Shown piece after piece: positions 5,020 through 61,221 of a stretch of DNA of 64,000 nt (positions are counted from its first letter, which is position 1; each line of letters opens with the position of its first letter). Under the pieces are notes generated by a model. That model saw only the letters and a program-made list of their open reading frames with translations. It was not told the DNA's origin and did no database searches. Made by a program: the position numbers and the translations under genes. Source of the DNA: Patescibacteria group bacterium (GTDB taxonomy: Bacteria > Patescibacteriota > Patescibacteriia > UBA9934); assembly GCA_041660165.1 (NCBI GenBank), contig JBAZWW010000004.1:14839-78838 (forward strand), written 5' to 3'.

Positions 5020-5191
5020 AATCGAGGGGGGGGCGAGGCAAGCCTCGCCCATACGGCGGGTTCAAAAGAGAACAACGATGTTCATAGTAGTGAAAGGATA
5101 CAGAGGAAGCCCAAAAAGGGAAAGTTTTAAAACACAACGGCCGAGCTCTGCATGCGTGCAAAGCTCGGCCCGTGGTCACTGGAAACGTTGT

Positions 5192-6571
5192 CTACCGCTT
5201 CGGGAGCACGAGGCCCGCGGCCGACATGCGATCACCGAACCAGTCTTTGAGCACGCCGCTGGCCACGTTCCGCTGGCGGTACGCGGCATGGGACATGCCA
5301 TTCCGTCCGTACTTGGTCCGCAAGTGGAGATCCAAGTTGTGGGAAATGTGCTCCACCGTAGGGGCTACCCACCGCTTCCGATCTTGGTATTCCCGATCGC
5401 GATAATCGGGCCTGACGTAGCGCCCCAGGATCTTCAACACCTCCTTCGCATAGCCGGAATTTGAGTCTGCGTTCTCCGCAGTGGGGTCAGGAATCTCAAC
5501 CAGGTCGCCGGTCCAAAAGCGGGCCCGGAGAATCTCCTGGTAGGCCCGCAGATCAGCAGGCGTGGGGGCGCGCACGTGGATGCCGTCGTTCGAAACGCCC
5601 ACGAGAATATGCCTGCTCCCGCGCCGATCAAGAACGGCACGTCCCCGCCCCGCCTTGATGATCAAGGACTTCTTTGGCTTGGGACGAAGCGTGGAAGAAA
5701 TGAAGTACGTTACCCCACCGTCCACCACCACGTGGCAGTCATAGAGCTCAGTCACGATAGATGAACCCTTCGGGGGCTGACCGATGAAACGCTCGCCGAT
5801 GAAAATGGGGTAATCCGGATGAAGGACATCCCCAGTCTTCTCGTCTGGTTCCCCAGTGTGGACAAAGCTTCCCCTCAGGGTGACGGTATCCCCCGAAAAG
5901 TGGCGCTCGTCAAGACGGTCAGCCAACGCCGCCACATCCCATTCCACGTACTGTTGCGGATCGACCGCGTGGAAGCTGAGATACTGATTGCCAACAGCCA
6001 ATCGGCGAAGCGCCTCCTTGCGCTCCACAACAGGACGCCCGGCCCAGCTTTCCGCAAACGGATAGAAGGTCCGAACATCACTCTCCTCACGCGCAATGCG
6101 CACCGAGCGATCACGCCCCGCGTACCGGACAAGACTGAGCGGGTCACTCCTGGCCGCCACGCCGTCCACGGGCTCCGCACACATCTGGAGTTCGGGGATG
6201 TGAACCGCCACCACGTCTTCAATTACCTCTTCCGCGTCACGGAGCGAGGTGCGGTAATCACGGACGAACTGGCGCGCGCCGAGCGCGTGGATGCGTGAAC
6301 CAGTAATTCCCGAATGAAGTTCGCACCAGGCGAGGTGAAGAGCGTCAAGACCGTGAAGGTCCGCAACCCGCTCATGATGAAGCGCGCTTGATTCGAGCTT
6401 CTTCGAAATCTCATACTCAGTAGCATACGGACGGAAGAAATCCGTCAGATCTGGCTTATACGCCTCTTCCACGAGCTCCGCATAATTCGGCTCGATCATG
6501 TGAGAAACCTCCATCGAAAATTGGTTGCCCGCGAAACGGGCAACACCGCAACGTAGCAAATACTCGTCCAT
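5192..6571 (-). CDS. hypothetical protein (high-GC ORFan, 459 aa)
   Basis: Long ORF with protein-like composition and no motif I recognise. Local GC is clearly higher than in neighbouring core genes. The antisense ORFs are R/L-rich junk. Confidence 0.5.
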   Translation of the reverse strand: MDEYLLRCGVARFAGNQFSMEVSHMIEPNYAELVEEAYKPDLTDFFRPYATEYEISKKLESSALHHERVADLHGLDALHLAWCELHSGITGSRIHALGARQFVRDYRTSLRDAEEVIEDVVAVHIPELQMCAEPVDGVAARSDPLSLVRYAGRDRSVRIAREESDVRTFYPFAESWAGRPVVERKEALRRLAVGNQYLSFHAVDPQQYVEWDVAALADRLDERHFSGDTVTLRGSFVHTGEPDEKTGDVLHPDYPIFIGERFIGQPPKGSSIVTELYDCHVVVDGGVTYFISSTLRPKPKKSLIIKAGRGRAVLDRRGSRHILVGVSNDGIHVRAPTPADLRAYQEILRARFWTGDLVEIPDPTAENADSNSGYAKEVLKILGRYVRPDYRDREYQDRKRWVAPTVEHISHNLDLHLRTKYGRNGMSHAAYRQRNVASGVLKDWFGDRMSAAGLVLPKR

Positions 6572-6589
6572 TGTGCAAATACAACAATA

Positions 6590-6620
6590 GGGGTCGAGAC
6601 ATGGCTCGACCCCTACGGCG
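6590..6620. repeat. 31-nt palindromic element, intergenic copy
   Basis: GGGGTCGAGACATGGCTCGACCCCTACGGCG between the 5192-6571 ORF and ndk. Confidence 0.7.
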
Positions 6621-6631
6621 CTCGCGTGCCA

Positions 6632-7099
6632 TTAAATACCCTCGCCGAAATGGAACTTGTCGGTTAACTTTTCGTATGCAAAAATCTCATCATCCTTAAA
6701 GAACCGCTTGATTTCAACTTTAGCGGAGTCTACGGAATCAGATGCGTGGACCATGTTTGAGGGGACGTTCATGGACAGATCTGCGCGGATGGTGCCGGCG
6801 TCAGCCACGCGGGGGTTTGTAGAGCCAACAATAATGCGCACTGTTTCAATGGCATCCAGTCCTTCAAGCACCATGGCGATTATCGGCGTCTGCATCATGA
6901 AGCCAAGCAGGGACGAAAAAAACGACTTGTCCTTCAAATGACCGTAATGCTCAGTCAGCGTGGCTTCATCAAGGTGCGCCATTTTTATGGCCACGATCTT
7001 CAAGCCCTTGCGCTCAAATCTGCCGATCACCTCTCCTGCAAGCTCGCGCTGTAAAGCATCTGGCTTCACGAGCACGAGTGTCTTTTGAATTTCTGCCAT
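6632..7099 (-). CDS. ndk: nucleoside diphosphate kinase
   Basis: 155 aa, …LVLVKPDALQR…NMVHASDS…, NDK signature including the active-site His region. Confidence 0.9.
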   Translation of the reverse strand: MAEIQKTLVLVKPDALQRELAGEVIGRFERKGLKIVAIKMAHLDEATLTEHYGHLKDKSFFSSLLGFMMQTPIIAMVLEGLDAIETVRIIVGSTNPRVADAGTIRADLSMNVPSNMVHASDSVDSAKVEIKRFFKDDEIFAYEKLTDKFHFGEGI

Positions 7100-8100: not shown

Positions 8101-8949
8101 CTAGAGACCATCGACCGTTGGCTCTCCGCCACTACTCGTTACTCGGACATCTCCATTCGTGTCCGTTCGATAAGTTGTTACGCCAAATTTTGTTAGGCGG
8201 GCAAGAACATCTTCATCCGGCAGTCCGTAGGAATTTCCGACGCCGACAGAAATGATGGCCGTATTCGGCGAGATCATTTTTAATAACTGTTCACTCGATG
8301 AGGTTCGGCTCCCATGATGTCCAACTTTCAAGACATCAACATGCGGAAGAACCCAATCAGCTTCTTGGGCAATGCCGGCATCGCCCGTCAAAAGTATTGT
8401 CGTCTCTCCATATGTCAATAAAACCGCCACTGATCCATCATTCGGGTCATCAAGCTCGGCCTTCTCATACGGCATACTCGGCCAAATAATGTCGAGTCTA
8501 GCGCCATTCCCAAGATCATAGGTATCGCCATCTTTGAAATGAAGGGACTCCGGCGCCAGCTTTTCATACTCGTGAAACTCCGGCGTGGTGTAGCCCTGCC
8601 CGCTATCCGCCGCTTGAGCGACGTGATAATTTTCGAGCACAGGAACGAGTCCCATCAAATGATCGGCATGCGGATGCGTGTTGATAACAAGATCAATTGA
8701 TCTATCCCACGGCAACATCACGCTTTGCAATTTTTGGAGAACCGCCGAGTCCGGCCCGCCATCAATCAATACTTGTTTTTCTGGCCCGTCGATAAATATC
8801 GCATCGCCCTGTCCGATATCAAAAATAAATACCGAAAGCGATTTTGGCTGAAATAGTTTACCTCGAATAATCTCGATTCTCGCTAAAAATAATCCGCAGA
8901 CAAGAACGGGAATCGCGACAAGCAAAGCTGTTCGGCGAGAAATGATCAT
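8101..8949 (-). CDS. comEC: ComEC C-terminal metallo-beta-lactamase domain protein (split comEC, part 2)
   Basis: HxHxDH motif (NTHPHADHLMG) and ComEC/Rec2-type lactamase-B domain, with an N-terminal transmembrane helix. The start overlaps the upstream ORF stop by ATGA (8946-8949). Confidence 0.8.
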   Translation of the reverse strand: MIISRRTALLVAIPVLVCGLFLARIEIIRGKLFQPKSLSVFIFDIGQGDAIFIDGPEKQVLIDGGPDSAVLQKLQSVMLPWDRSIDLVINTHPHADHLMGLVPVLENYHVAQAADSGQGYTTPEFHEYEKLAPESLHFKDGDTYDLGNGARLDIIWPSMPYEKAELDDPNDGSVAVLLTYGETTILLTGDAGIAQEADWVLPHVDVLKVGHHGSRTSSSEQLLKMISPNTAIISVGVGNSYGLPDEDVLARLTKFGVTTYRTDTNGDVRVTSSGGEPTVDGL

Positions 8950-10199
8950 AGGTTGAGAACAGCGAACGGCAAGCTAGCCATGGCGTCGATCACTCGGAGA
9001 ATACATTCGAGGAAGAACCAGCCAGGGAGAGACAGGAGGCCCCCTCCTACTCCCCCATAAATGGGGGAGAGTACGTGGGTGATCACTCCCGTAGTGCCGG
9101 CGGACATGGCGTAAGGGAGAAAAGGTAGGACGAGCAAGTTCGTAAAAGGCCCGATGATCGATAGCCGATGAAAGCCAAAAATAATTACTGGCAAGGTGGC
9201 GAGGGTGGCCGCCAGCGTACACGAAAATGATTCGCGCAAGCCAAATGTTTCGGGTATCCATTTAAGTCTCTCGGCGAGAGGTTTGGCGAATGCCATGAGG
9301 CCCGCCGTGGACAACACCGAAAGTTGGAACCCCGCATCATCCCGTAGAATCCTTGGCGAGAAAAAGAGCATGATAGCAACCGTCAGCAACAGCGCATTCC
9401 AACCCGAACTTTTTCGTCCAAGCTGAGACGCGGTGATGGCGATGGCGCCCATGATGCCCGCGCGCATAACCGCCCCTTCCCCGCCAGCAAGAATGACAAA
9501 TCCGGCAATGGCGCAAAGCACAAAAGGAAACGCATACTGCCGTTTCAAACCCGCATAAATGAGAAATGCCAGCGCAAGCGAGGACACCAGCGCCACGTTA
9601 TACCCGCTCGCCGCCACCACGTGCGAGGTGCCCGTTCGCACAAAGCGCTGTTTCCAATTATCAGGAAACGCGTTGTCGCCGATGAGCAAACCGGCCAACA
9701 ATTGCGCATGCGGTTCGCCATACGTTTTTCTGATCTCGGTTACAACACGCTCGTGAATCTTGCCGAGTACTATCCTTGGTCCCATCTTCACGCCTCGCGC
9801 CAACACAAACGGCTCGCTTCGGGAATAGCACTGCGCAAAAATACCTTTAGCTGCCAGAAATCTGTCATATCGAAAACCATCAAACGGTTCAGGAGACTCT
9901 AGATCGCAATGCACGCCGATCTTATCGCCCAGCTCGCCATGAGAATAGAGTGGAACGAATGCTAACACCTTATCGGCAACCGGCGCGCCATCCACTATCA
10001 GATGTTCAAGGGTCAACTGCTCGCCCTTCTCACCCACTGCCCGTTTCATGATGATGCCCGTGACGCTAGCGTTTTTGCTGAGGTGAAAAGCAACAGAATC
10101 TGGCCGAGGCTGAAACCCCGGATAAAACGAATAGACCGCCACGCCGAAAATAAAAACGACGAGCAAGGCTCTTAAGGCTTTGCTCGGCGTCATCTTCAT
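8946..10199 (-). CDS. comEC: ComEC N-terminal membrane (competence/DUF4131) domain protein (split comEC, part 1)
   Basis: Polytopic membrane protein with a ComEC competence-domain-like sequence. The stop overlaps the start of the MBL-domain ORF. The start codon is uncertain (10193-10199) to avoid overlap with the leuS stop. Confidence 0.75.
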   Translation of the reverse strand: MKMTPSKALRALLVVFIFGVAVYSFYPGFQPRPDSVAFHLSKNASVTGIIMKRAVGEKGEQLTLEHLIVDGAPVADKVLAFVPLYSHGELGDKIGVHCDLESPEPFDGFRYDRFLAAKGIFAQCYSRSEPFVLARGVKMGPRIVLGKIHERVVTEIRKTYGEPHAQLLAGLLIGDNAFPDNWKQRFVRTGTSHVVAASGYNVALVSSLALAFLIYAGLKRQYAFPFVLCAIAGFVILAGGEGAVMRAGIMGAIAITASQLGRKSSGWNALLLTVAIMLFFSPRILRDDAGFQLSVLSTAGLMAFAKPLAERLKWIPETFGLRESFSCTLAATLATLPVIIFGFHRLSIIGPFTNLLVLPFLPYAMSAGTTGVITHVLSPIYGGVGGGLLSLPGWFFLECILRVIDAMASLPFAVLNL

Positions 10200-12799
10200 C
10201 ACACAACGAAATTCACAATCTTGCCCTTCACTTGGATCACTTTTTTCGGCTCGCACGTGAGGAATTTCTGAACGTTAATGTCTGCTCGAGCAAGCTCTAG
10301 GACTGATAAATCTGATAGGGCCGATGGGACTAATAGGGTGGCGCGGAGCTTGCCGTTTACCTGAACAGCAATTGAAACATTCTCATCCACTAAAAGCTTC
10401 TCATCTGCCTCCGGCCATGCTTGTTCCTCAACAAACCCCCTCTCCCCCATCTTCTCCCAAAGCTCATTCGCAAGATGCGGGGCGAACGGGACAAGGATGC
10501 GCAAGAACAGGGCAAAGCTTTCTTTCGAGATGCCCTTCTCCTGCGCCTCATTCACAAATGACATCATGGATGAAACAGCGGTGTTGAATTTGAAATGCTC
10601 GATATCCGCTGTGACTTTGCTGATGGTTTTGTGCAGAGCACGGGCCACCTCGGAGGCCGAGACGGGGTCGAAACGTAGTTCGACCCCTACGGCGAGGGCC
10701 TTCTCGGACAAACGCTCGATCTTATCCAAAAATCGTCGAACACCAATCACTCCGTTGGTGCTCCACGGTACTGGCTCCTCAAAAGGCCCCATGAATAACT
10801 CGTACACACGCAGAGTGTCGGCACCGAACTCCTTCACGATCTCATCCGGATTCACCACGTTGCCCTTTGACTTGCTCATCTTTGTTCCATCTTCAGACAT
10901 GATGAGGCCGTGGGAGTGACGACGAACATACGGTTCGCTCGTCGGCACGAGTCCTTGATCAAATAAAAACTTATTCCAGAAACGCGAGTACAACAAGTGA
11001 AGCGTGGTGTGTTCCATCCCGCCGTTATAAAGGTCAACCGGCATCCAGTACTTAAGTGCTTCTTTCGAAGCGAATGCTTCGTCATTGTGCGGATCCGCGT
11101 ACCGCAAGAAATACCAGCTTGATCCCGCCCAGTTCGGCATCGTATCGGTTTCCCGCCTTGCCGGACCACCACATTGAGGGCACGTTGTGTTTACGAATGA
11201 CTCGATGGATGCGAGCGGTGATTCGCCGGTGTCCGTGGGTTCGTACCGTTCAACCTGAGGGAGTTCGACGGGGAGTTGAGAGTCAGGGACGGCGATCCAG
11301 CCGGCCTGAGACTCCCCATGGCCACCCTGAGACTCCCCCGTAGCCCCCTCTTGGAAAGAGGGGGAGCGCCCATCCTGAGAGACAGAGCGCCCGTTCTGAG
11401 CACAGCGCTCGCAAAAAACGAGTGGAATTGGCTCGCCCCAATAGCGCTGGCGAGAAAAAACCCAGTCGCGGAGTTTGAAGGTAGTTTTCTTTTTGCCTAA
11501 ACCTTTTTCTTCAAGCCACTGGATTATTTCCTTCGTTGCCTCATCAGAAGTCATCCCATCGAACTGACCTGAATTTATAAGCCTGCCACGATGAGAGTAA
11601 ACACTTTCACCCATCTCAACGCTTTTCTTAATAACTTCAAGAATCCCCGCTTCATCTGACGCTTTATACGTCGTCATCCATTCCCTAACTCCATTCCCTA
11701 TAACAGCAGGAAGAACAACTTCCTTGAATTTCAACTCAAATTTCTTCGCGAAGGCAAAGTCGCGCTCATCATGGGCGGGGACGGCCATGATGGCGCCGGT
11801 GCCGTAGTGCGGGAGGACGTAGTCGGCGATCCAAACGGGAATTTGCTCGCCGGTAGCGGGGTTCGTAGCATAGGCACCAGTGAAGACGCCGATTTTTTCC
11901 TTTGAGTCATCGCCACGTTCGATTTCGGTTTTTTTCTGAACCGAGAGCACATATTTTTCTACCGCTTTCTTCTGCCCGCCAGTAGTCAACGTAGCGACGA
12001 GGGGATGCTCTGGCGCGAGGACGAGGTACGTGGCGCCGAAGATCGTGTCGGGGCGGGTCGTGAAGACGGTGATGGGGTCGATACTTGGATCGACCCCTAC
12101 GGCACGGAATTCGATCTCCGCGCCTTCGCTTCGGCCGATCCAATCCTCCTGTTGCTTTTTGATCTTCGGCAAATAATCGACGTCTTTAAGGTCGTCAATC
12201 AACCGATCGGCATATTTTGTGATGGCAATCATCCACTGCTCCTTCTCGCGCCTCTCAACGGCCGTACCGCAACGCTCGCAACAACCGCCGACAACTTCCT
12301 CGTTCGCAAGACCGATCTTGTCCTTTGGGCACCAATTGATGAGCGCCTTGGCTTTGTAGGCCAGCCCCGCTTTGAAAAATTGCAAAAACTGCCACTGCGT
12401 CCAACGATAATATTTTGGATCCGTCGTATTGATCTCCCTTGACCAATCAAAACTGAAACCAATTGATTGGAGTTGCCGTCTAAAATTATCAACATTCTGT
12501 TTGGTCACCACGCTAGGATGAACACCCATCTTAATGGCGTAATTCTCCGTAGGCAAACCGAAGGCATCCCAGCCCATGGGGAACAACACATTTTTTCCCT
12601 CCATTCTTTTCTTGCGCGCAACAACATCAAGCGCCGTATAACTGCGCGGGTGCCCCACGTGCAGGCCCTCGCCCGACGGGTACGGAAACTCGACCAAGAC
12701 ATAATACTTGTCTTTGCCGGAATCCTTGGCCTGAAAAATACCAGACTCTACCCAGCGCTTCTGCCACTTGGGATCAACTGACGAATGGTCGTACGACAT
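10199..12799 (-). CDS. leuS: leucyl-tRNA synthetase
   Basis: About 866 aa with a HIGH-like motif (PYPSGEGLHVGHP), KMSKS (KMSKSKGN) and a LeuS editing-domain sequence. It contains two in-frame copies of a 31-nt palindromic element (see findings). Confidence 0.95.
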   Translation of the reverse strand: MSYDHSSVDPKWQKRWVESGIFQAKDSGKDKYYVLVEFPYPSGEGLHVGHPRSYTALDVVARKKRMEGKNVLFPMGWDAFGLPTENYAIKMGVHPSVVTKQNVDNFRRQLQSIGFSFDWSREINTTDPKYYRWTQWQFLQFFKAGLAYKAKALINWCPKDKIGLANEEVVGGCCERCGTAVERREKEQWMIAITKYADRLIDDLKDVDYLPKIKKQQEDWIGRSEGAEIEFRAVGVDPSIDPITVFTTRPDTIFGATYLVLAPEHPLVATLTTGGQKKAVEKYVLSVQKKTEIERGDDSKEKIGVFTGAYATNPATGEQIPVWIADYVLPHYGTGAIMAVPAHDERDFAFAKKFELKFKEVVLPAVIGNGVREWMTTYKASDEAGILEVIKKSVEMGESVYSHRGRLINSGQFDGMTSDEATKEIIQWLEEKGLGKKKTTFKLRDWVFSRQRYWGEPIPLVFCERCAQNGRSVSQDGRSPSFQEGATGESQGGHGESQAGWIAVPDSQLPVELPQVERYEPTDTGESPLASIESFVNTTCPQCGGPARRETDTMPNWAGSSWYFLRYADPHNDEAFASKEALKYWMPVDLYNGGMEHTTLHLLYSRFWNKFLFDQGLVPTSEPYVRRHSHGLIMSEDGTKMSKSKGNVVNPDEIVKEFGADTLRVYELFMGPFEEPVPWSTNGVIGVRRFLDKIERLSEKALAVGVELRFDPVSASEVARALHKTISKVTADIEHFKFNTAVSSMMSFVNEAQEKGISKESFALFLRILVPFAPHLANELWEKMGERGFVEEQAWPEADEKLLVDENVSIAVQVNGKLRATLLVPSALSDLSVLELARADINVQKFLTCEPKKVIQVKGKIVNFVV
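10665..10695. repeat. 31-nt palindromic element, leuS copy 1 (in-frame)
   Basis: GGGGTCGAAACGTAGTTCGACCCCTACGGCG; read on the minus strand it encodes AVGVELRFDP within LeuS. Confidence 0.7.
12074..12104. repeat. 31-nt palindromic element, leuS copy 2 (in-frame)
   Basis: GGGGTCGATACTTGGATCGACCCCTACGGCA; it encodes AVGVDPSIDP within LeuS, in the same frame as copy 1. Confidence 0.7.
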
Positions 12800-12810
12800 A
12801 CGCAAAAAAG

Positions 12811-37764: not shown

Positions 37765-38292
37765 TCACCCTTCAAGGTTCCGTCCTTGCGGGGCCTTTTC
37801 TTTTTTATGGGCCAATTTACTCTCAAGGTCATTCATAAAACGCAAATACGGTTTAATTTCAGGATACTTTAACAAACCGGAAAACTTCCACCGGTTAGGG
37901 ACCATCATAGCAGCCAATTTCTTTTTTCCAATAAAATAGTTCGCTAAGCAGTAAAAATCACCGTCACCGGAGACAATAATGGCTTGATCATAATTTTCGT
38001 ATTCGATCATTGCCTGTAAAACCAATTCGGCATCACAATTCCCCTTAGTCGTGCCATCCTTATACGTTAAAGTTGGTTTAAAAATACAAATAAAACCTGC
38101 CTGTTGTAACGAATTATAAAGTTTCGTATTCCCCGGTAAATAGCCTAAAAATACATAGGCCTCTTTGACAGCATATTTCTCGGCCAAATATACTCGAAAT
38201 TTCCGAAAACTTAAAAACCATCCCAACGAACGGATCGCGAGGTTCAAATTCTGACTATCTATAAGCGCGTAATTCTTCTGCGGGGCAATCAT
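37765..38292 (-). CDS. NYN (LabA-like) ribonuclease-domain protein
   Basis: …YALIDSQNLN…DAELVLQAM…IVSGDGDF… NYN/PIN-like signature. The gene lies in a markedly AT-rich patch between trxB and trxA. Confidence 0.7.
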   Translation of the reverse strand: MIAPQKNYALIDSQNLNLAIRSLGWFLSFRKFRVYLAEKYAVKEAYVFLGYLPGNTKLYNSLQQAGFICIFKPTLTYKDGTTKGNCDAELVLQAMIEYENYDQAIIVSGDGDFYCLANYFIGKKKLAAMMVPNRWKFSGLLKYPEIKPYLRFMNDLESKLAHKKEKAPQGRNLEG

Positions 38293-40802: not shown

Positions 40803-41495
40803 CTAGGCGAAGGATCCGCCTTTCCCGGCAGCAATGGGCCGTATTGGCAATTGAAACTTCCTCAAATCACTCCCAACCAATACTCGTTGCACATCTGTTC
40901 GGCTAATCAATGACTGGGTTGGCCGTACGTCGTTACCGCTCCCGGGAATGCCTGGAATTGAGAACCCGACGTACTCGATCCTTTTCTTCAACCGAAATCG
41001 TACCCAATCAACCATCGGTACAAGGTCTGTGTCCGAACTCACTAGAATAGCCGTATCGTATTTATTATCGACTGCGCCAGCCACTAAATCAACTGCAATC
41101 TTAACATCGATTCCTTTCTCACGGAACGTATGCAAAGTAATCTCATTGATACCTTTACTCAAAATCTGTTGATGATTCTCTACCCGAGAGTCAATCAACA
41201 CCTTTTCCGTCCGCTCCCGAAGCTTACTTGTTTTGATCTGCCAAGCTGTCTGTTTCAAGCGGTTGAATAACTGCACCTGTTTAGCCATGGCTCGCCTACT
41301 TCGTTCGTCACCTTCCCGTTCTCGCACCGTTCCAATGTAGTATCTCTTCCCCTGCTCAGTAACCACCCTACTATCTGCGAGGAAATGAGCGAAGGCGTCA
41401 AAATCAAACCCCGCCGCCTGAATAGCCAATGGTTTGTGAGCGAGATGGTAAAAATTACCGCCATCAATAAAAATCTGTACTCGCTCCGCGTTCAT
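40803..41495 (-). CDS. NYN (LabA-like) ribonuclease-domain protein
   Basis: …VQIFIDGGNFYH…SSDTDLVPMV… NYN signature. Start at the internal Met (MNAERVQIF…). A 38-bp repeat copy (41528-41565) lies just upstream. Confidence 0.7.
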   Translation of the reverse strand: MNAERVQIFIDGGNFYHLAHKPLAIQAAGFDFDAFAHFLADSRVVTEQGKRYYIGTVREREGDERSRRAMAKQVQLFNRLKQTAWQIKTSKLRERTEKVLIDSRVENHQQILSKGINEITLHTFREKGIDVKIAVDLVAGAVDNKYDTAILVSSDTDLVPMVDWVRFRLKKRIEYVGFSIPGIPGSGNDVRPTQSLISRTDVQRVLVGSDLRKFQLPIRPIAAGKGGSFA

Positions 41496-41527
41496 AATGA
41501 GCAAAAAGTACCATAAAAATAAAGTCC

Positions 41528-41565
41528 TGCACACTCCCCGTGAGGGCAGGCGCAGGAGACTTTAT
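41528..41565. repeat. 38-bp repeat copy A flanking the DGR cassette
   Basis: cctgcacactccccgtgagggcaggcgcaggagactt; about 90% identical to 44338-44373 in the same orientation. Confidence 0.6.
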
Positions 41566-41606: not shown

Positions 41607-42599
41607 TCAACAAGCTAAATTATGAACCGCCTCGGCCAAACCAAACGTATTGCCATGTCCAAGAAGACCCAGATATGAGGCAACTACGCCTTCTTCCGGC
41701 TCAGCTCCGAGCCTCCTCATCATTCTGCGTTTTGTCGAACCCCTTAAGACCCGATGATCCGAAAATTGTACCCACCCTAAGAAATCCACCCCCGAAGCCA
41801 TTGTTCGGAGCTCGATCTTTTGTGGGTGAAGTGTTAACTTCAGTTGGTCGAACAAAAACTGATGAACAAGTGGGAGAACAGATTCGAGATACCCTCGATG
41901 ACGCGACAAAAATACAAAGTCATCCGCGTATCTCACATAATGTCTGATATGCAACTGATGCTTCACGTATTGGTCGAGTTCATTCATGTATACGTTGGCG
42001 AGTATCTGACTGGTCAAATTTCCTAGTGGCAATCCCACTCCTGGCACTCCCGACGGGAAGCTCTCGATAATCTGTTGAATACACCACATGATGCGCCAAT
42101 CGGCTATTCGCCGATCCAATATGAGAAGAAGTGTACGTTGGTCTATAGACGCAAAAAACTTTCTCACATCACACTTCAACACCCAAACGGTTTTTCGATG
42201 ATTCATCGATACTTCTTGTGCCATCCGAGTGAATCGATTATTCGCTCGATGAGTGCCTTTGGCGATCCTGCATGAAAAAGAATCAGCAATAAACGTCCGG
42301 TCAAAAAATGGATACAACTTTCGATACAATGCCCGATGGAAAATACGATCTCGAACAGACGCTTTATGAATCTGCCTTTTCTTTGGATCGTTAATAACAA
42401 AAGCTCTATATGGCTCATGACGATATGACATGTCCACAAGTGAGGCGTGCAAAGCCAGCAGATTGCTCATAAGGTTCCGGGCAAATTCTTGGACGTCCGG
42501 TTTAGAGCGCTTCCCGGGCAAAAATTCTCTCCATGCCACGAGCAAATTCTCGACGGAAATTATGTCTTCGTATTTTTCTTCAAAAATAATTCTGCCCAT
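41607..42599 (-). CDS. diversity-generating retroelement reverse transcriptase
   Basis: 330 aa with RT motifs: YADDFVF (motif C) and, in motif-4 position, LPLGNLTSQ. That is the DGR-specific [ILV]GxxxSQ signature, which replaces the QGxxxSP of group II introns. A DSFSCRIAKGTH block typical of DGR RTs is also present. There is no maturase/endonuclease extension. A TR/VR pair is adjacent. Confidence 0.85.
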   Translation of the reverse strand: MGRIIFEEKYEDIISVENLLVAWREFLPGKRSKPDVQEFARNLMSNLLALHASLVDMSYRHEPYRAFVINDPKKRQIHKASVRDRIFHRALYRKLYPFFDRTFIADSFSCRIAKGTHRANNRFTRMAQEVSMNHRKTVWVLKCDVRKFFASIDQRTLLLILDRRIADWRIMWCIQQIIESFPSGVPGVGLPLGNLTSQILANVYMNELDQYVKHQLHIRHYVRYADDFVFLSRHRGYLESVLPLVHQFLFDQLKLTLHPQKIELRTMASGVDFLGWVQFSDHRVLRGSTKRRMMRRLGAEPEEGVVASYLGLLGHGNTFGLAEAVHNLAC

Positions 42600-43000
42600 A
42601 TGAGATCATTTAACGTCCCCCCCCCCCGAAACTGCTCCCACTACTTGAAGACTTAAAATCTGCATATCTTGTTTGGTTTTTATACTACCAGACCATCCCC
42701 AAAACACACAGGTACACTCTCGGCGGTCGTATCGATGATTTGCTGGTAGACATGATCGAAGCGACTGCCACAGCGGGCTTTCTAGCTAAAGCAGAGAAGC
42801 TTCCGTATGTCCGAGTCTCAATCCGAAAACTAGATACCATAAAAGTGCTTCTCATGGTGCTGTGGGAAACGAAATCACTTAACGACAAGCAATACATCAC
42901 CCTTTCAGAAAAGTTTGAAGCGATTGGCAAAATGCTCGGTGGCTGGCATGGACAGCTCACCAAACAAACAACCCCAGGAAATATCCCGGGGCAGAAATGA
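42600..43000 (+). pseudogene. avd: avd (DGR accessory variability determinant, four-helix-bundle family), interrupted by an 11-C homopolymer
   Basis: The frame ending at TGA 43000 encodes …IPKTHRYTLGGRIDDLLVDMIEATATAG…LSEKFEAIGKMLGGWHGQ. This resembles Avd/23S-rRNA-IVS four-helix-bundle proteins (…SIPRKHG…, …EVGRILGSW…). The only upstream ATG (42600) is out of frame by 1 nt across the C run at 42617-42627. 12 Cs would fuse MRSFNV-PPPP-KLLPLLEDLKSAYL… into a roughly 133-aa Avd. Confidence 0.6.
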
Positions 43001-43004
43001 AACC

Positions 43005-43135
43005 TCTGGCGGAGACCGCAGCCGGGTTGTTGCCGTTCCACTGGTTGCTGAGCCAGTTGTAGTTCACGTACCAGTTCTGGCCATTCCAGTTGAGGTAGTA
43101 GACGTACACCTTGTCGTTCACCGGGTTGCGGAATC
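43005..43135 (-). repeat. DGR template repeat (TR)
   Basis: 131-bp repeat matching 43482-43612. All 23 mismatches fall at plus-strand T, which is minus-strand A, in this copy. This copy is therefore the invariant template. Confidence 0.85.
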
Positions 43136-43372
43136 ACGTGAAGTGCCATCCATAACACCATCCTTTGACTACTCTGAGGATTGAATCGAATTCGTGATAA
43201 TAATCACCTAGCACTCCACGCCAAGTTTTTTCATGTCAAAATCCGGAAAAGCCACGCTATTCCAAGCCGTAACCAGAAATATTCTGGACAAATTCGAATC
43301 AGGTTTGGTAGCCAGAAGTCTTAACCGCCGGCATATTCACCTTACCCGGACAAAGTATAACTCCAAATTGAA

Positions 43373-43463: not shown

Positions 43464-44144
43464 TCAGGTCACAGTGCTGGGACTTGCGGAGACCGCAGCC
43501 GGGTAGCTGCCGTCCCACCGGCCGCTGAGCCAGCCGTAGTACACGCACCAGTGCCGGCCACTCCAGTCGAGGTAGCAGACGCACACCCCGGCGCTCACCG
43601 GGCTGCGGAAGCCCTCGCCCCAGAAGAAGATGGCGCCCGCTGTCTTCCAGCCCTCCGGAATGAAGTCCAGATTCGCCTTGAGCGCATCCAGCTCATTCTT
43701 GGAGGAATGGCCGGGCACGGCCTTCAGCTTCTCGTCCCAGAGGACTTGGCCGTTGATGCCACCATCGGCCAACTGGGCAGGGTCCACGTGGAACGTCATC
43801 GGCACGCCGTTACGGAGCAGAATCCGGTCCTTACCCGTCCCCTGCCAAGTGAAGATCACCGTGCTGGGCTTGACCACGTTCCATGCCCGCTCGGCCGTAT
43901 CGAACGGAAGCTGGGAAGGGACGTCGTTGTAGACCTCGAGCGTGTGCTCGTCGATCCGCTTGAAGCGGAGCGGGGCCGGGGCGGGCTCGGGCGCGTTCGC
44001 CCCCTTGAAGGCGTCAACGCGACGCTTGAGCGCGTCCTTGTCCGCGAGACATTCCTCCGCCTCTTCCATGGACATGCCCGCTTGCGCGAACTTACCCACG
44101 AGAGCAAGGAGCTGGCCAGCCGGGAGCTTCAGAAGGTTCGTCAT
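43464..44144 (-). CDS. DGR target protein (small protein with C-terminal VR in a C-type-lectin-like segment)
   Basis: 226 aa from MTNLLKL… with AAGGATGGG as RBS. The C-terminal W/G/Y-rich segment coincides with the VR. No signal peptide is evident. Confidence 0.75.
   Translation of the reverse strand: MTNLLKLPAGQLLALVGKFAQAGMSMEEAEECLADKDALKRRVDAFKGANAPEPAPAPLRFKRIDEHTLEVYNDVPSQLPFDTAERAWNVVKPSTVIFTWQGTGKDRILLRNGVPMTFHVDPAQLADGGINGQVLWDEKLKAVPGHSSKNELDALKANLDFIPEGWKTAGAIFFWGEGFRSPVSAGVCVCYLDWSGRHWCVYYGWLSGRWDGSYPAAVSASPSTVT
43482..43612 (-). repeat. DGR variable repeat (VR) at the 3' end of the target gene
   Basis: Matches the TR with 23 substitutions, exclusively at TR adenines (minus-strand sense). 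It encodes the C-terminal 45 aa of the target protein (…FFWGEGFRSPVSAGVCVCYLDWSGRHWCVYYGWLSGRWDGSYPAAVSAS). Confidence 0.85.
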
Positions 44145-44337
44145 GTGACTACCCATCCTTTCATAATGCCGTCGGTACACCCTGTATGCGATCTATTCGC
44201 CTACAAGATTTCCCTGTGTTAAAAACGGCTGTTCTTGGCTAATGTTTGGCCAGAAACAGCTATTTTCAACCTAGTCATTATAACAAAAAAATGCACTTTT
44301 GTCAATGTTATAGGGCCATAATACAAAGAGCTCCTAC

Positions 44338-46412: not shown

Positions 46413-47078
46413 ATGCCTTTCCTATTGATCGACAAACCCGCGGGGATCACGTCACATGATGTGGTCGACAAAGTTCGCAAAATTACCGGCGAGAGAACTG
46501 TGGGCCATGCTGGGACGCTTGACCCGTTTGCCACGGGGTTGCTTATTGTTGGGGTGGGACGGGACTCAACCAAACAATTATCAACGTACTTGGGGATGGA
46601 TAAGGAGTATGAGGCCACGTTTGTGATCGGAGCAACCACCGAGACGTTGGATCCGGAAGCGCCCGTCGTGGTCGCGCCAAGGGTCGATACATGGATCGAC
46701 CCCTACGGCGAGATTCGTTCCGCCATGAAAAAATTGACCGGTGAAATCTCCCAAATCCCCCCGATGCATTCGGCCATTAAGGTTGGCGGGAAGAAATTGT
46801 ACGAACTCGCCAGAAAAGGCCAAACAATCGAAGTTGCCCCAAGAAATCTCACCGTTCACTCATTCGAATTACTCGAAAATCCGGATTTCTCTACCTGGCC
46901 AATCACCTTGAAGGTCAGAATCGCCTGCTCCTCCGGCACGTACATTCGAGCGCTTGCTAGAGACCTTGGCGTTCTTTTGGGCACAACGGGCTACGTTTCC
47001 AGTCTACGCCGGACCAAAATCGGCGAATATTCCGTAGCTTCTGCAAAAACCCTTGAAACCCTTTCTAACCCTTTATAA
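46413..47078 (+). CDS. truB: tRNA pseudouridine(55) synthase
   Basis: …GHAGTLDPFATGLL… catalytic Asp motif; 221 aa; contains a copy of the 31-nt palindromic element (46681-46711). Confidence 0.9.
   Translation: MPFLLIDKPAGITSHDVVDKVRKITGERTVGHAGTLDPFATGLLIVGVGRDSTKQLSTYLGMDKEYEATFVIGATTETLDPEAPVVVAPRVDTWIDPYGEIRSAMKKLTGEISQIPPMHSAIKVGGKKLYELARKGQTIEVAPRNLTVHSFELLENPDFSTWPITLKVRIACSSGTYIRALARDLGVLLGTTGYVSSLRRTKIGEYSVASAKTLETLSNPL
46681..46711. repeat. 31-nt palindromic element, truB copy (in-frame, opposite orientation relative to the gene)
   Basis: aGGGTCGATACATGGATCGACCCCTACGGCG; it encodes RVDTWIDPYGE within TruB. Confidence 0.7.
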
Positions 47079-60818: not shown

Positions 60819-61221
60819 ATAAATTATAACAGTCGGTGTGGATAAATATTGACCAAACTGCCAGTATTCTGGTATTTTAATGAAGGAATTGCCCCGTATC
60901 CAAACTGTGGCGTTTATCGCCGCTTTCCCGAAAGGGATAGGATGCGAGGTTGCGGAAATCAGAAAATATGCTATACTCTAGCTACATTCGGGATTTTCCC
61001 GCGGCCCCGTCCTCGCAAGAGGGCGGGGAACATGTTTTTAAAGGGAATAGAGCTTTCTAAAACCCTCCTTAACCTTTTGGAAATCGCTGTCATCAAGTGA
61101 CCCCATTTTTGAAGAAAGCCTCCTGTAATCAATGGTTCGTAACTGGTGGAGACAAACGTTCGTCATAATTCCCTTTGCTTTTGCATAGCCTCCATCTCTA
61201 AACACTTCCTCACGTCATGGC

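Follow-up and report, generated by a model that had tools for sequence, protein, structure and literature searches.

INTRODUCTION

GTAG-tagged repetitive extragenic palindromic (REP) sequences, found in Escherichia coli and Pseudomonas among others, are short stem-loops rich in guanine plus cytosine (GC), with published stems of 6 to 13 bp, next to one foot of which stands an unpaired GTAG (Di Nocera, De Gregorio and Rocco, 2013, BMC Genomics 14:522; PMC3733652). The same survey describes subfamilies with complementary stem changes and reports the GTAG type from Proteobacteria, Cyanobacteria, Chloroflexi and the Planctomycetes-Verrucomicrobia-Chlamydiae group, but from neither Patescibacteria nor Bacillota. 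Some copies are intragenic and in-frame, and their hosts include truB (S. maltophilia, E. litoralis and S. alaskensis) and several aminoacyl-tRNA synthetase genes (PMC3733652). Here we analyzed a 64,000-nucleotide stretch of DNA from a Patescibacteria group bacterium (assembly GCA_041660165.1, contig JBAZWW010000004.1, positions 14,839 to 78,838), hereafter the window, which carries a hairpin repeat of about 31 nt in truB, at two sites in leuS and in the intergenic region downstream of ndk.

The repeat resembles GTAG-tagged REPs in its short GC-rich stem-loop, its unpaired GTAG, its compensatory stem variants and its in-frame copies in truB and a synthetase gene, a likeness of layout. It differs from many described families in its loop, which has 6 nt rather than 2 to 3. 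Classical families number more than 100 copies per genome and are mostly extragenic; in the window, density is low and three of the four copies are intragenic.

In REPIN-RayT systems (Nunvar 2010; Bertels and Rainey 2011; Ton-Hoang 2012; Bertels 2017), as in the case described below, a transposase of the Y1/HUH type is tied to the repeat, RayT being apparently low-copy and the repeats dispersed. Classically, REPs or REPINs flank the RayT gene, whereas here an inverted REP pair lies inside the RayT open reading frame (ORF) and the window copies are singletons, with no REPIN dimers among them. The REP-RayT pairing recurs here between RayTs of only 25% identity. The ends of IS200/IS605 elements offer a further parallel, with a subterminal hairpin read as single-stranded DNA by a Y1 HUH transposase, as would be expected here together with strand-specific behavior; unlike those elements, the window copies have no distinct left and right ends, enclose no transposase gene and lack TnpB. 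Rickettsia palindromic elements (RPEs) (Ogata et al. 2000, 2002) are likewise in-frame palindromic insertions, found in conserved genes of an organism with a reduced genome, where they add surface segments, and RPE-1 is present in truB of R. conorii (PMC3733652). However, RPE-1 measures approximately 100 to 150 bp and has neither a GTAG tag nor a RayT, and RPE-4 and RPE-6 are of the CGTC type (PMC3733652), whereas the repeat of the window is 31 nt long and of the GTAG type. A literal search of a limited literature yielded no report of REPs or RayT in Patescibacteria.

We propose, with a probability of roughly 80%, that the repeat is a GTAG-tagged REP, most likely mobilized by a RayT transposase whose gene very probably sits in the same genome, on another contig.

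RESULTS

A GTAG-tagged hairpin repeat in the window

The pattern GGGTCGA-N8-TCGACCCCTACGG has four exact copies in the window, at positions 6591, 10665, 12075 and 46681, all on the + strand, compared with a mean of 0.00 and a maximum of 0 in 100 shuffles. The fifth hit in the list arises from the 6591 copy, whose palindrome also matches when read from the other strand. The consensus of the four is (G)GGGTCGAn-ACnTnG-nTCGACCCC-TACGGCG; the flanking DNA is unrelated, which leaves a conserved block of approximately 31 nt. It consists of a GC-rich stem of 9 bp (8 bp in the truB copy), a 6-nt loop and then CTACGGCG. On the - strand, each copy reads CGCC or TGCC, then GTAG, then GGGTCGA, with GTAG directly 5' of the stem in all four. 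This arrangement, a hairpin preceded by GTAG, defines the GTAG-tagged REPs, and we assigned the repeat to that type.

The ninth stem pair varies among the four copies yet stays complementary (G:C, A:T, T:A and T:A). Folded as single-stranded DNA, the hairpins have energies of -9.0 to -12.4 kcal/mol, with z-scores between -1.9 and -4.1. No Rfam family covers the repeat, either in the window or at 14 loci of other genomes. The sequence CCGTAGGGG, common to the repeat and helix 45 of 16S rRNA, probably reflects a coincidence, and this link was dropped.

A preliminary description of this DNA had the truB copy in the opposite orientation to those of leuS. This is correct relative to the genes; on the chromosome, by contrast, all four copies are co-oriented, within a window of uniformly negative GC skew. 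Frame and orientation of reading differ among the copies, which encode unrelated peptides, and one of them is intergenic, from which the preliminary description concluded that the element is not inherently coding. Five of the six reading frames through the repeat are free of stop codons. The four copies of the 64-kb window and two more in a 20.6-kb locus containing a RayT gene (L168, see below) extrapolate to tens of copies, not hundreds.

The truB copy

The copy at 46680 to 46711 (+), (A)GGGTCGATACATGGATCGACCCCTACGGCG, breaks down into AGGGTCGAT-ACATGG-ATCGACCC-CTACGGCG; its - strand reads CGCC-GTAG-GGGTCGAT...ATCGACCC. The host gene (46413 to 47078, +) encodes a protein of 221 residues that is 100% identical to P0001, annotated as TruB (PF01509, PF16198), and whose best match among solved structures is 1sgv (E = 1.1e-52). 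The proteins identical to TruB and LeuS both come from a Patescibacteria metagenome-assembled genome, from one contig of 120,792 nt. Both the sequence and the ORF confirm the in-frame palindrome reported at 46681 to 46711 and the peptide RVDTWIDPYGE attributed to it, here R90-VDTWIDPYG-E100. In the truB mRNA the hairpin comes first, followed by CUACGG.

For comparison we used loci from relatives, of which L119 and L122 lie on one 897-kb contig and L120 and L123 on one 164-kb contig; L121 is a further truB locus. Gene order is conserved among all those fetched. The element is identical in L121, whose TruB shares 86% identity with that of the window. In L120 the site reads GGGTCGAC-GCACGG-GTCGACCCC-AACGCCG, with the stem kept by a compensatory change from T:A to C:G and the tail mutated, and in L119 the hairpin is missing, with only GTCTCT-ATCGACC at the site. 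Relative to hairpin-free relatives and to M. tuberculosis TruB, the insert brings a net gain of just 3 residues. The truB copy is therefore an insertion plus replacement and not a clean 31-nt insertion.

This segment varies in length in an alignment of orthologues, as the preliminary description had noted. It had also placed the insert in a surface loop, and residues 88 to 96 do form a loop in the AlphaFold model (mean predicted local distance difference test [pLDDT] score, 88.9); according to this model the insert also takes in the first turn of a helix spanning residues 97 to 107. The predicted location is far from the catalytic Asp37 and the GTLDP motif.

In the truB gene of L121 (1243 to 1929) and in two further relatives (P0010 and P0011), another tagged hairpin is inserted at a second TruB loop, which links the ELLE segment to the WPIT segment. 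It reads GGGAGGGTC-CGA-GACCCTCCC-CTGCGCG and encodes GGSETLPC, GGSETRPY or GGSETLPY. TruB thus has at least two recurrent insertion spots.

The leuS copies

The leuS gene (10199 to 12805, -; annotated start, ATG at 12799) encodes a protein 100% identical to P0121, annotated as leucine--tRNA ligase. It is approximately 110 residues longer than its shortest relatives (756 residues) and contains three REP-derived in-frame segments. Two stem from the main repeat, which lies on the + strand while the gene is on the - strand, such that the mRNA presents GUAG before the hairpin. The site 1 copy (12074 to 12104) encodes RA-VGVDPSIDP-I, LeuS residues 232 to 243, and the site 2 copy (10664 to 10695) encodes A-VGVELRFDP-V, residues 702 to 713.

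Site 2 is occupied in L122 and L123 as well, where it reads GTAG-GGGTCGAC-loop-GTCGACCC. All three genomes thus share GTAG-GGGTCGA(A/C)-loop-(T/G)TCGACCC, one stem pair having changed by compensation. Within the tag and stem, even the synonymous positions are conserved, compared with a background third-position identity of 0.48 to 0.57 at identical residues. At site 1, L122 has no insert, and L123 has another hairpin that points the opposite way, GGGCCGAC-TTCGAT-GTCGGCCC-CCTCCGG; the hairpins of the window and of L123 are independent insertions into one loop.

The segment at site 3 (11324 to 11365, -) belongs to a second family of GTAG-tagged hairpins, CCCCCTCTT-nnn-AAGAGGGGG-CTACGG, and is oriented opposite to the four main copies. 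It reads CCCCCTCTT-TCC-AAGAGGGGG-CTACGGGGGAGTCTCAGGG and is in-frame, yielding the peptide SPSFQEGATGESQG. A further copy of this family is found in comEC of L123. The site 3 block of 42 nt is identical in L123, where it forms the longest identical run of the gene, and is absent from L122. Since ordinary conserved leuS coding sequence also contains an identical run of 41 nt, the block by itself is weak evidence for recent transfer.

The AlphaFold model of LeuS is poor overall (pLDDT, 63.7), and we used only its local secondary structure. Residues 232 to 243 are predicted in a β-hairpin turn at the entry of the editing domain, 702 to 713 in a loop between helices and 479 to 492 in a disordered loop. 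All three sites appear to be distant from the HVGH (residues 47 to 50) and KMSKS (640 to 644) motifs in this low-quality model. Thus, as the preliminary description had anticipated for a structure prediction of TruB and LeuS, the copies map to loops and turns and not to catalytic motifs.

LeuS length in this clade ranges from 756 to more than 860 residues, with several hypervariable loops. A segment of about 60 residues (approximately 360 to 430; window positions ~11510 to 11720, -) is missing from the two closest relatives, L122 and L123.

The intergenic copy downstream of ndk

The copy announced at 6590 to 6620 between ndk and the ORF at 5192 to 6571 was found at 6590 to 6621 (+; GGGGTCGAGACATGGCTCGACCCCTACGGCG). 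Both genes are on the - strand (ndk, 6632 to 7099), and the repeat lies 10 nt downstream of the ndk stop codon, some 19 nt upstream of the start of the next gene. On the transcribed strand, GTAG and the hairpin are followed by the T-rich tract TATTGTTGTATTT, and this combination scores as terminator-like (region 6587 to 6616, -). In L122 and L123, ndk is followed by an ordinary GC hairpin and T-run terminator with no REP. The REP seems to have displaced the terminator hairpin of ndk, whose function it probably fulfills. The ORF at 5192 to 6571, between two hairpins, was considered as a transposase candidate and rejected, since Pfam gave no match to it and relatives without the REP have the gene too, conserved and in synteny.

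Distribution of the repeat in other genomes

The same copies recur in independent assemblies and in relatives, and the relatives differ in the presence, identity and orientation of hairpins. Beyond them, the exact repeat core was found in more than 118 stretches of the genome collection. Among the matches listed, the hosts are mostly Oscillospiraceae and other Clostridia, the others being Anaerolineae, Thermomicrobiales, Dehalococcoidia, a Patescibacteria metagenome-assembled genome (MAG; L109) and a few other groups. A REP core of 20 nt is identical across Bacillota, Chloroflexota and Patescibacteria. Of 134 copies among these listed matches from other phyla, approximately 24 fall inside long open frames and about 110 outside them. 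All 195 copies collected from other genomes carry the GTAG tag, a tail that the search pattern itself required. A narrower pattern retrieved 44 metagenome loci, one of which (L137) is the truB copy of an L121-type relative.

Of 50 distinct copies, 45 are Watson-Crick paired at stem position 8, with T:A, C:G, A:T and G:C all in use, a level reached by none of 2,000 shuffles. G:T pairs are rare at this covarying position.

In Oscillospiraceae and other Clostridia (for example, L005, L012, L021, L059, L083 and L110; L073, 4668 to 5040; L014, 1899 to 2416) the core is part of longer conserved repeat units and of tandem arrays whose periods are 115 nt and 245 nt, and a GTAG-GGGCGG...CCGCCC hairpin family is common near it. 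The GC-rich REP is present on metagenome contigs of only 31 to 40% GC (L127, L129, L133, L136, L138, L139, L145, L147, L154, L163 and L165), which often share the 3' flank TTCAATATGTTTTA after it.

Association with RayT

In a Clostridia MAG (L073), an ORF of the Y1_Tnp family (PF01797) abuts a tandem array of four REP copies. A search of the loci for the HUH...Y..NP motif uncovered RayT-like genes in 7 of the 44 metagenome loci, and in 6 of these 7 the repeat lies in-frame inside the RayT ORF (L127, L130, L134, L148, L150 and L158). A search for enriched neighbors by clustering all ORFs of the 118 genome loci brought up only common families.

The closest homologue of the L130 RayT is a protein of a Patescibacteria MAG (P0242; 87% identity), named "REP element-mobilizing transposase RayT" by the Joint Genome Institute. 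It matches Pfam Y1_Tnp with 37.2 bits (cutoff, 23), and both its HUH motif (NHIHG) and its tyrosine motif (AYIRRNP) are intact. A sequence search of the PDB with RayT returned no solved relative. P0242 is present in two assemblies (MFA5945679 and MFA6590905), as are the LeuS (MFA5945909 and MFA6591165) and TruB (MFA5945941 and MFA6591197) of the window. In both, its accession number is 230 to 292 away from those of LeuS and TruB, and the LeuS-TruB gap of 32 equals the number of genes between them in the window. The RayT locus L168 has a GC content of 52.3%, against 51.8% for the window. Given the accession proximity, the matching GC content and the identical REP sequence, P0242 and the window very probably belong to one genome.

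In L168, the P0242 gene (10001 to 10618) contains two inverted REP copies, at 10116 to 10150 and 10321 to 10356. The first, GCGCC-GTAG-GGGTCGATCCATGTATCGACCCC-GTCTCG, matches the truB copy in both stem and loop; the second, inverted, reads GGGGTCGATACACGGATCGACCCCTACGGCG. Both are in-frame, with the HUH motif between them, and both positions are conserved when P0242 is aligned with the Clostridia RayT (L073, 5059 to 5553), despite an identity of only 25%. That gene has the same REP core at the second position, and at the first the peptide VVGDAHVVP looks like the product of a different hairpin family, as judged from the protein. REP-like peptides (VGADPCVRP, GQARGPAPT and GRDVACNVST) abound in the loop that follows the HUH motif in approximately 120 RayT homologues. 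Elsewhere, inverted REP pairs were seen only at some loci of other phyla, such as L065.

Other hairpins and features of the window

A tagged hairpin, GTAGG-TGGCGGGTC-taa-GACCCGCC, lies at 2412 to 2436 between rpsL and rpsG, and in L123 a GGGTCGAC REP occupies the same spot of the rpsL/rpsG spacer. Upstream of murA, the hairpin at 5031 to 5058 (+; GGGCGAGGC-AA-GCCTCGCCC-ATACGGCG), a possible degenerate relative, has the tag GTAT instead of GTAG; its ACGGCG tail and its orientation are those of the main copies. These two hairpins may represent degenerate or separate REP families.

The window also encodes a reverse transcriptase (41607 to 42599, -; RVT_1, E = 1.7e-19), which adjoins proteins with NYN domains and ORFs that match no family (40803 to 41534, -; 37765 to 38292, -; 42685 to 43161; 43464 to 44180). 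This locus may be a diversity-generating retroelement or retron-like. As a potential mobilizer of the repeats the enzyme was rejected, as nothing ties its ORF to them. A DUF3800-IX RNA was identified by Rfam at 60891 to 60954 (+; 45.5 bits, with a gathering score of 36.8).

DISCUSSION

The preliminary description saw in this repeat a mobile mini-palindrome tolerated inside essential genes. The differences in presence and absence among relatives, the GTAG-hairpin layout, the RayT genes and the loop locations lend support to that view. By analogy with E. coli TnpA-REP and the IS200/IS605 transposases, RayT would recognize the folded single-stranded hairpin together with its GTAG tag; TnpA-REP reportedly binds and cleaves REP as single-stranded DNA. 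RayT would then cleave and rejoin single strands, probably at the replication fork, and so seed copies at new sites. Catalysis of repeat movement by RayT, the single-stranded route and present-day activity would all follow from this parallel with related enzymes. Where a genome is compact and intergenic DNA is scarce, many insertions would hit genes, and those that survive would be the ones that keep the reading frame and fall into structurally permissive loops. The presence of copies in TruB and LeuS would be accounted for by the survival of such in-frame loop insertions and by the scarcity of stop codons in the repeat.

Several points weigh against a REP mobilized by RayT. No RayT gene was detected in the 64-kb window, either by comparing 10 ORFs with Pfam or by tblastn over its whole length. 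The best NCBIfam match of P0242, REP_Tyr_transpos, scores 50.1 bits, below the equivalog cutoff of 80, and the link of P0242 to the window rests on accession proximity, GC content and REP identity and not on one contig. The prevalence of intragenic singletons departs from the mainly extragenic placing typical of GTAG-tagged REPs and from the inverted dimers, or REPINs, presumed to be the unit that moves. Repeat density is modest, with approximately 6 copies per 85 kb seen of the genome. The truB and leuS site 2 copies are common to relatives of 70 to 86% protein identity, which makes them old, so that any current mobility is conjectural, and conserved hairpins could also reflect a host function.

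This last possibility, that the hairpins are cis elements selected by the host as terminators or for mRNA stability or translation pausing and have spread independently of RayT, is in our opinion unlikely, although it is partly compatible with a REP origin, as REPs are often co-opted. In its favor, the intergenic copy occupies the position of the ndk terminator of relatives and scores as terminator-like, and in leuS, the site 2 stem and tag persist at synonymous positions in three genomes, with a compensatory change. However, the truB and leuS copies occur in both orientations relative to transcription, at loop-coding positions and with no obvious regulatory logic. The same sequence also recurs in unrelated contexts and phyla and is strongly linked to RayT genes, and the G:T pairs that would betray selection at the RNA level are rare at the covarying position. 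Even less probable is a small element of another kind that RayT does not mobilize, such as a miniature inverted-repeat transposable element or an RPE-like element dependent on a DDE transposase, or a sequence disseminated through gene conversion between copies. The boundaries of the insertions are not clean, with net gains of +3, +9 and about +3+3 codons; the truB site of L119 keeps GTC...ATCGACC, which could indicate microhomology or conversion; and RPEs are a precedent for in-frame palindromic inserts (PMC3733652). Yet the element has only 31 nt, lacks both a target-site duplication and any terminal inverted repeats other than the hairpin, and bears the GTAG tag that defines RayT-type REPs, with RayT genes enriched near the copies.

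A DNA uptake signal for natural competence might be suspected from the ComEC homologue encoded beside leuS (8946 to 10256), since such signals are also tolerated in coding regions. The uptake sequences of Neisseria and Haemophilus are found within genes and as inverted pairs in terminators. Nevertheless, they occur about once per kb, against one copy per 14 to 16 kb here, and the full hairpin with its covarying stem indicates that structure is conserved rather than sequence. With the same core in distant phyla and the linkage to RayT, we regard this explanation as very improbable. Chance similarity, a convergent peptide motif or an assembly artifact would find nothing in its favor beyond the small number of copies in the window. 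It is hardly credible for a repeat that is absent from shuffled sequences, is read in different frames and orientations into unrelated peptides, includes a noncoding copy and recurs in independent assemblies and relatives.

Thus, the repeat is best described as a GTAG-tagged REP of the RayT type. Rather more speculative is the proposal that, in a RayT clade of Patescibacteria, Chloroflexota and Bacillota, the cognate REP pair is built in-frame into the gene around the HUH motif instead of lying beside the gene. Its persistence between RayTs of only 25% identity, with a 20-nt core identical across phyla, would point to a functional coupling, and in the compact genomes of the Candidate Phyla Radiation the system would be a recurrent source of new loops in essential proteins such as TruB and LeuS. 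RayT may recognize the hairpins in its own gene or mRNA, in a form of autoregulation or of linkage between enzyme and repeat. Alternatively, the core of the gene that codes for HUH may behave as a REPIN-like cassette. Our limited literature search found no REPs inside RayT ORFs; Bertels 2017 analyzed only the extragenic flanks of RayT genes, and internal copies are not mentioned by Quentin 2018.

The phenomenon and its host genes have precedents. The phylum is one for which we found no earlier report, and the REP pair inside RayT is the less expected feature. The repeat explains odd lineage-specific inserts in conserved proteins of Patescibacteria, such as RVDTWIDPYG, VGVDxxxDP, GSxxGSTPT and GGSETLPY, and it supplies a simple DNA signature for spotting such inserts during annotation. 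These data extend GTAG-REP/RayT systems to the Candidate Phyla Radiation, where scarce intergenic space pushes repeats into genes. TruB and an aminoacyl-tRNA synthetase are again the hosts, as in Proteobacteria and Rickettsia, a recurrence that is now testable. Finally, the REP core shared across Bacillota, Chloroflexota and Patescibacteria, together with the REP pair in the RayT ORF, offers a tractable system for studying the matching of transposase and repeat over long times.

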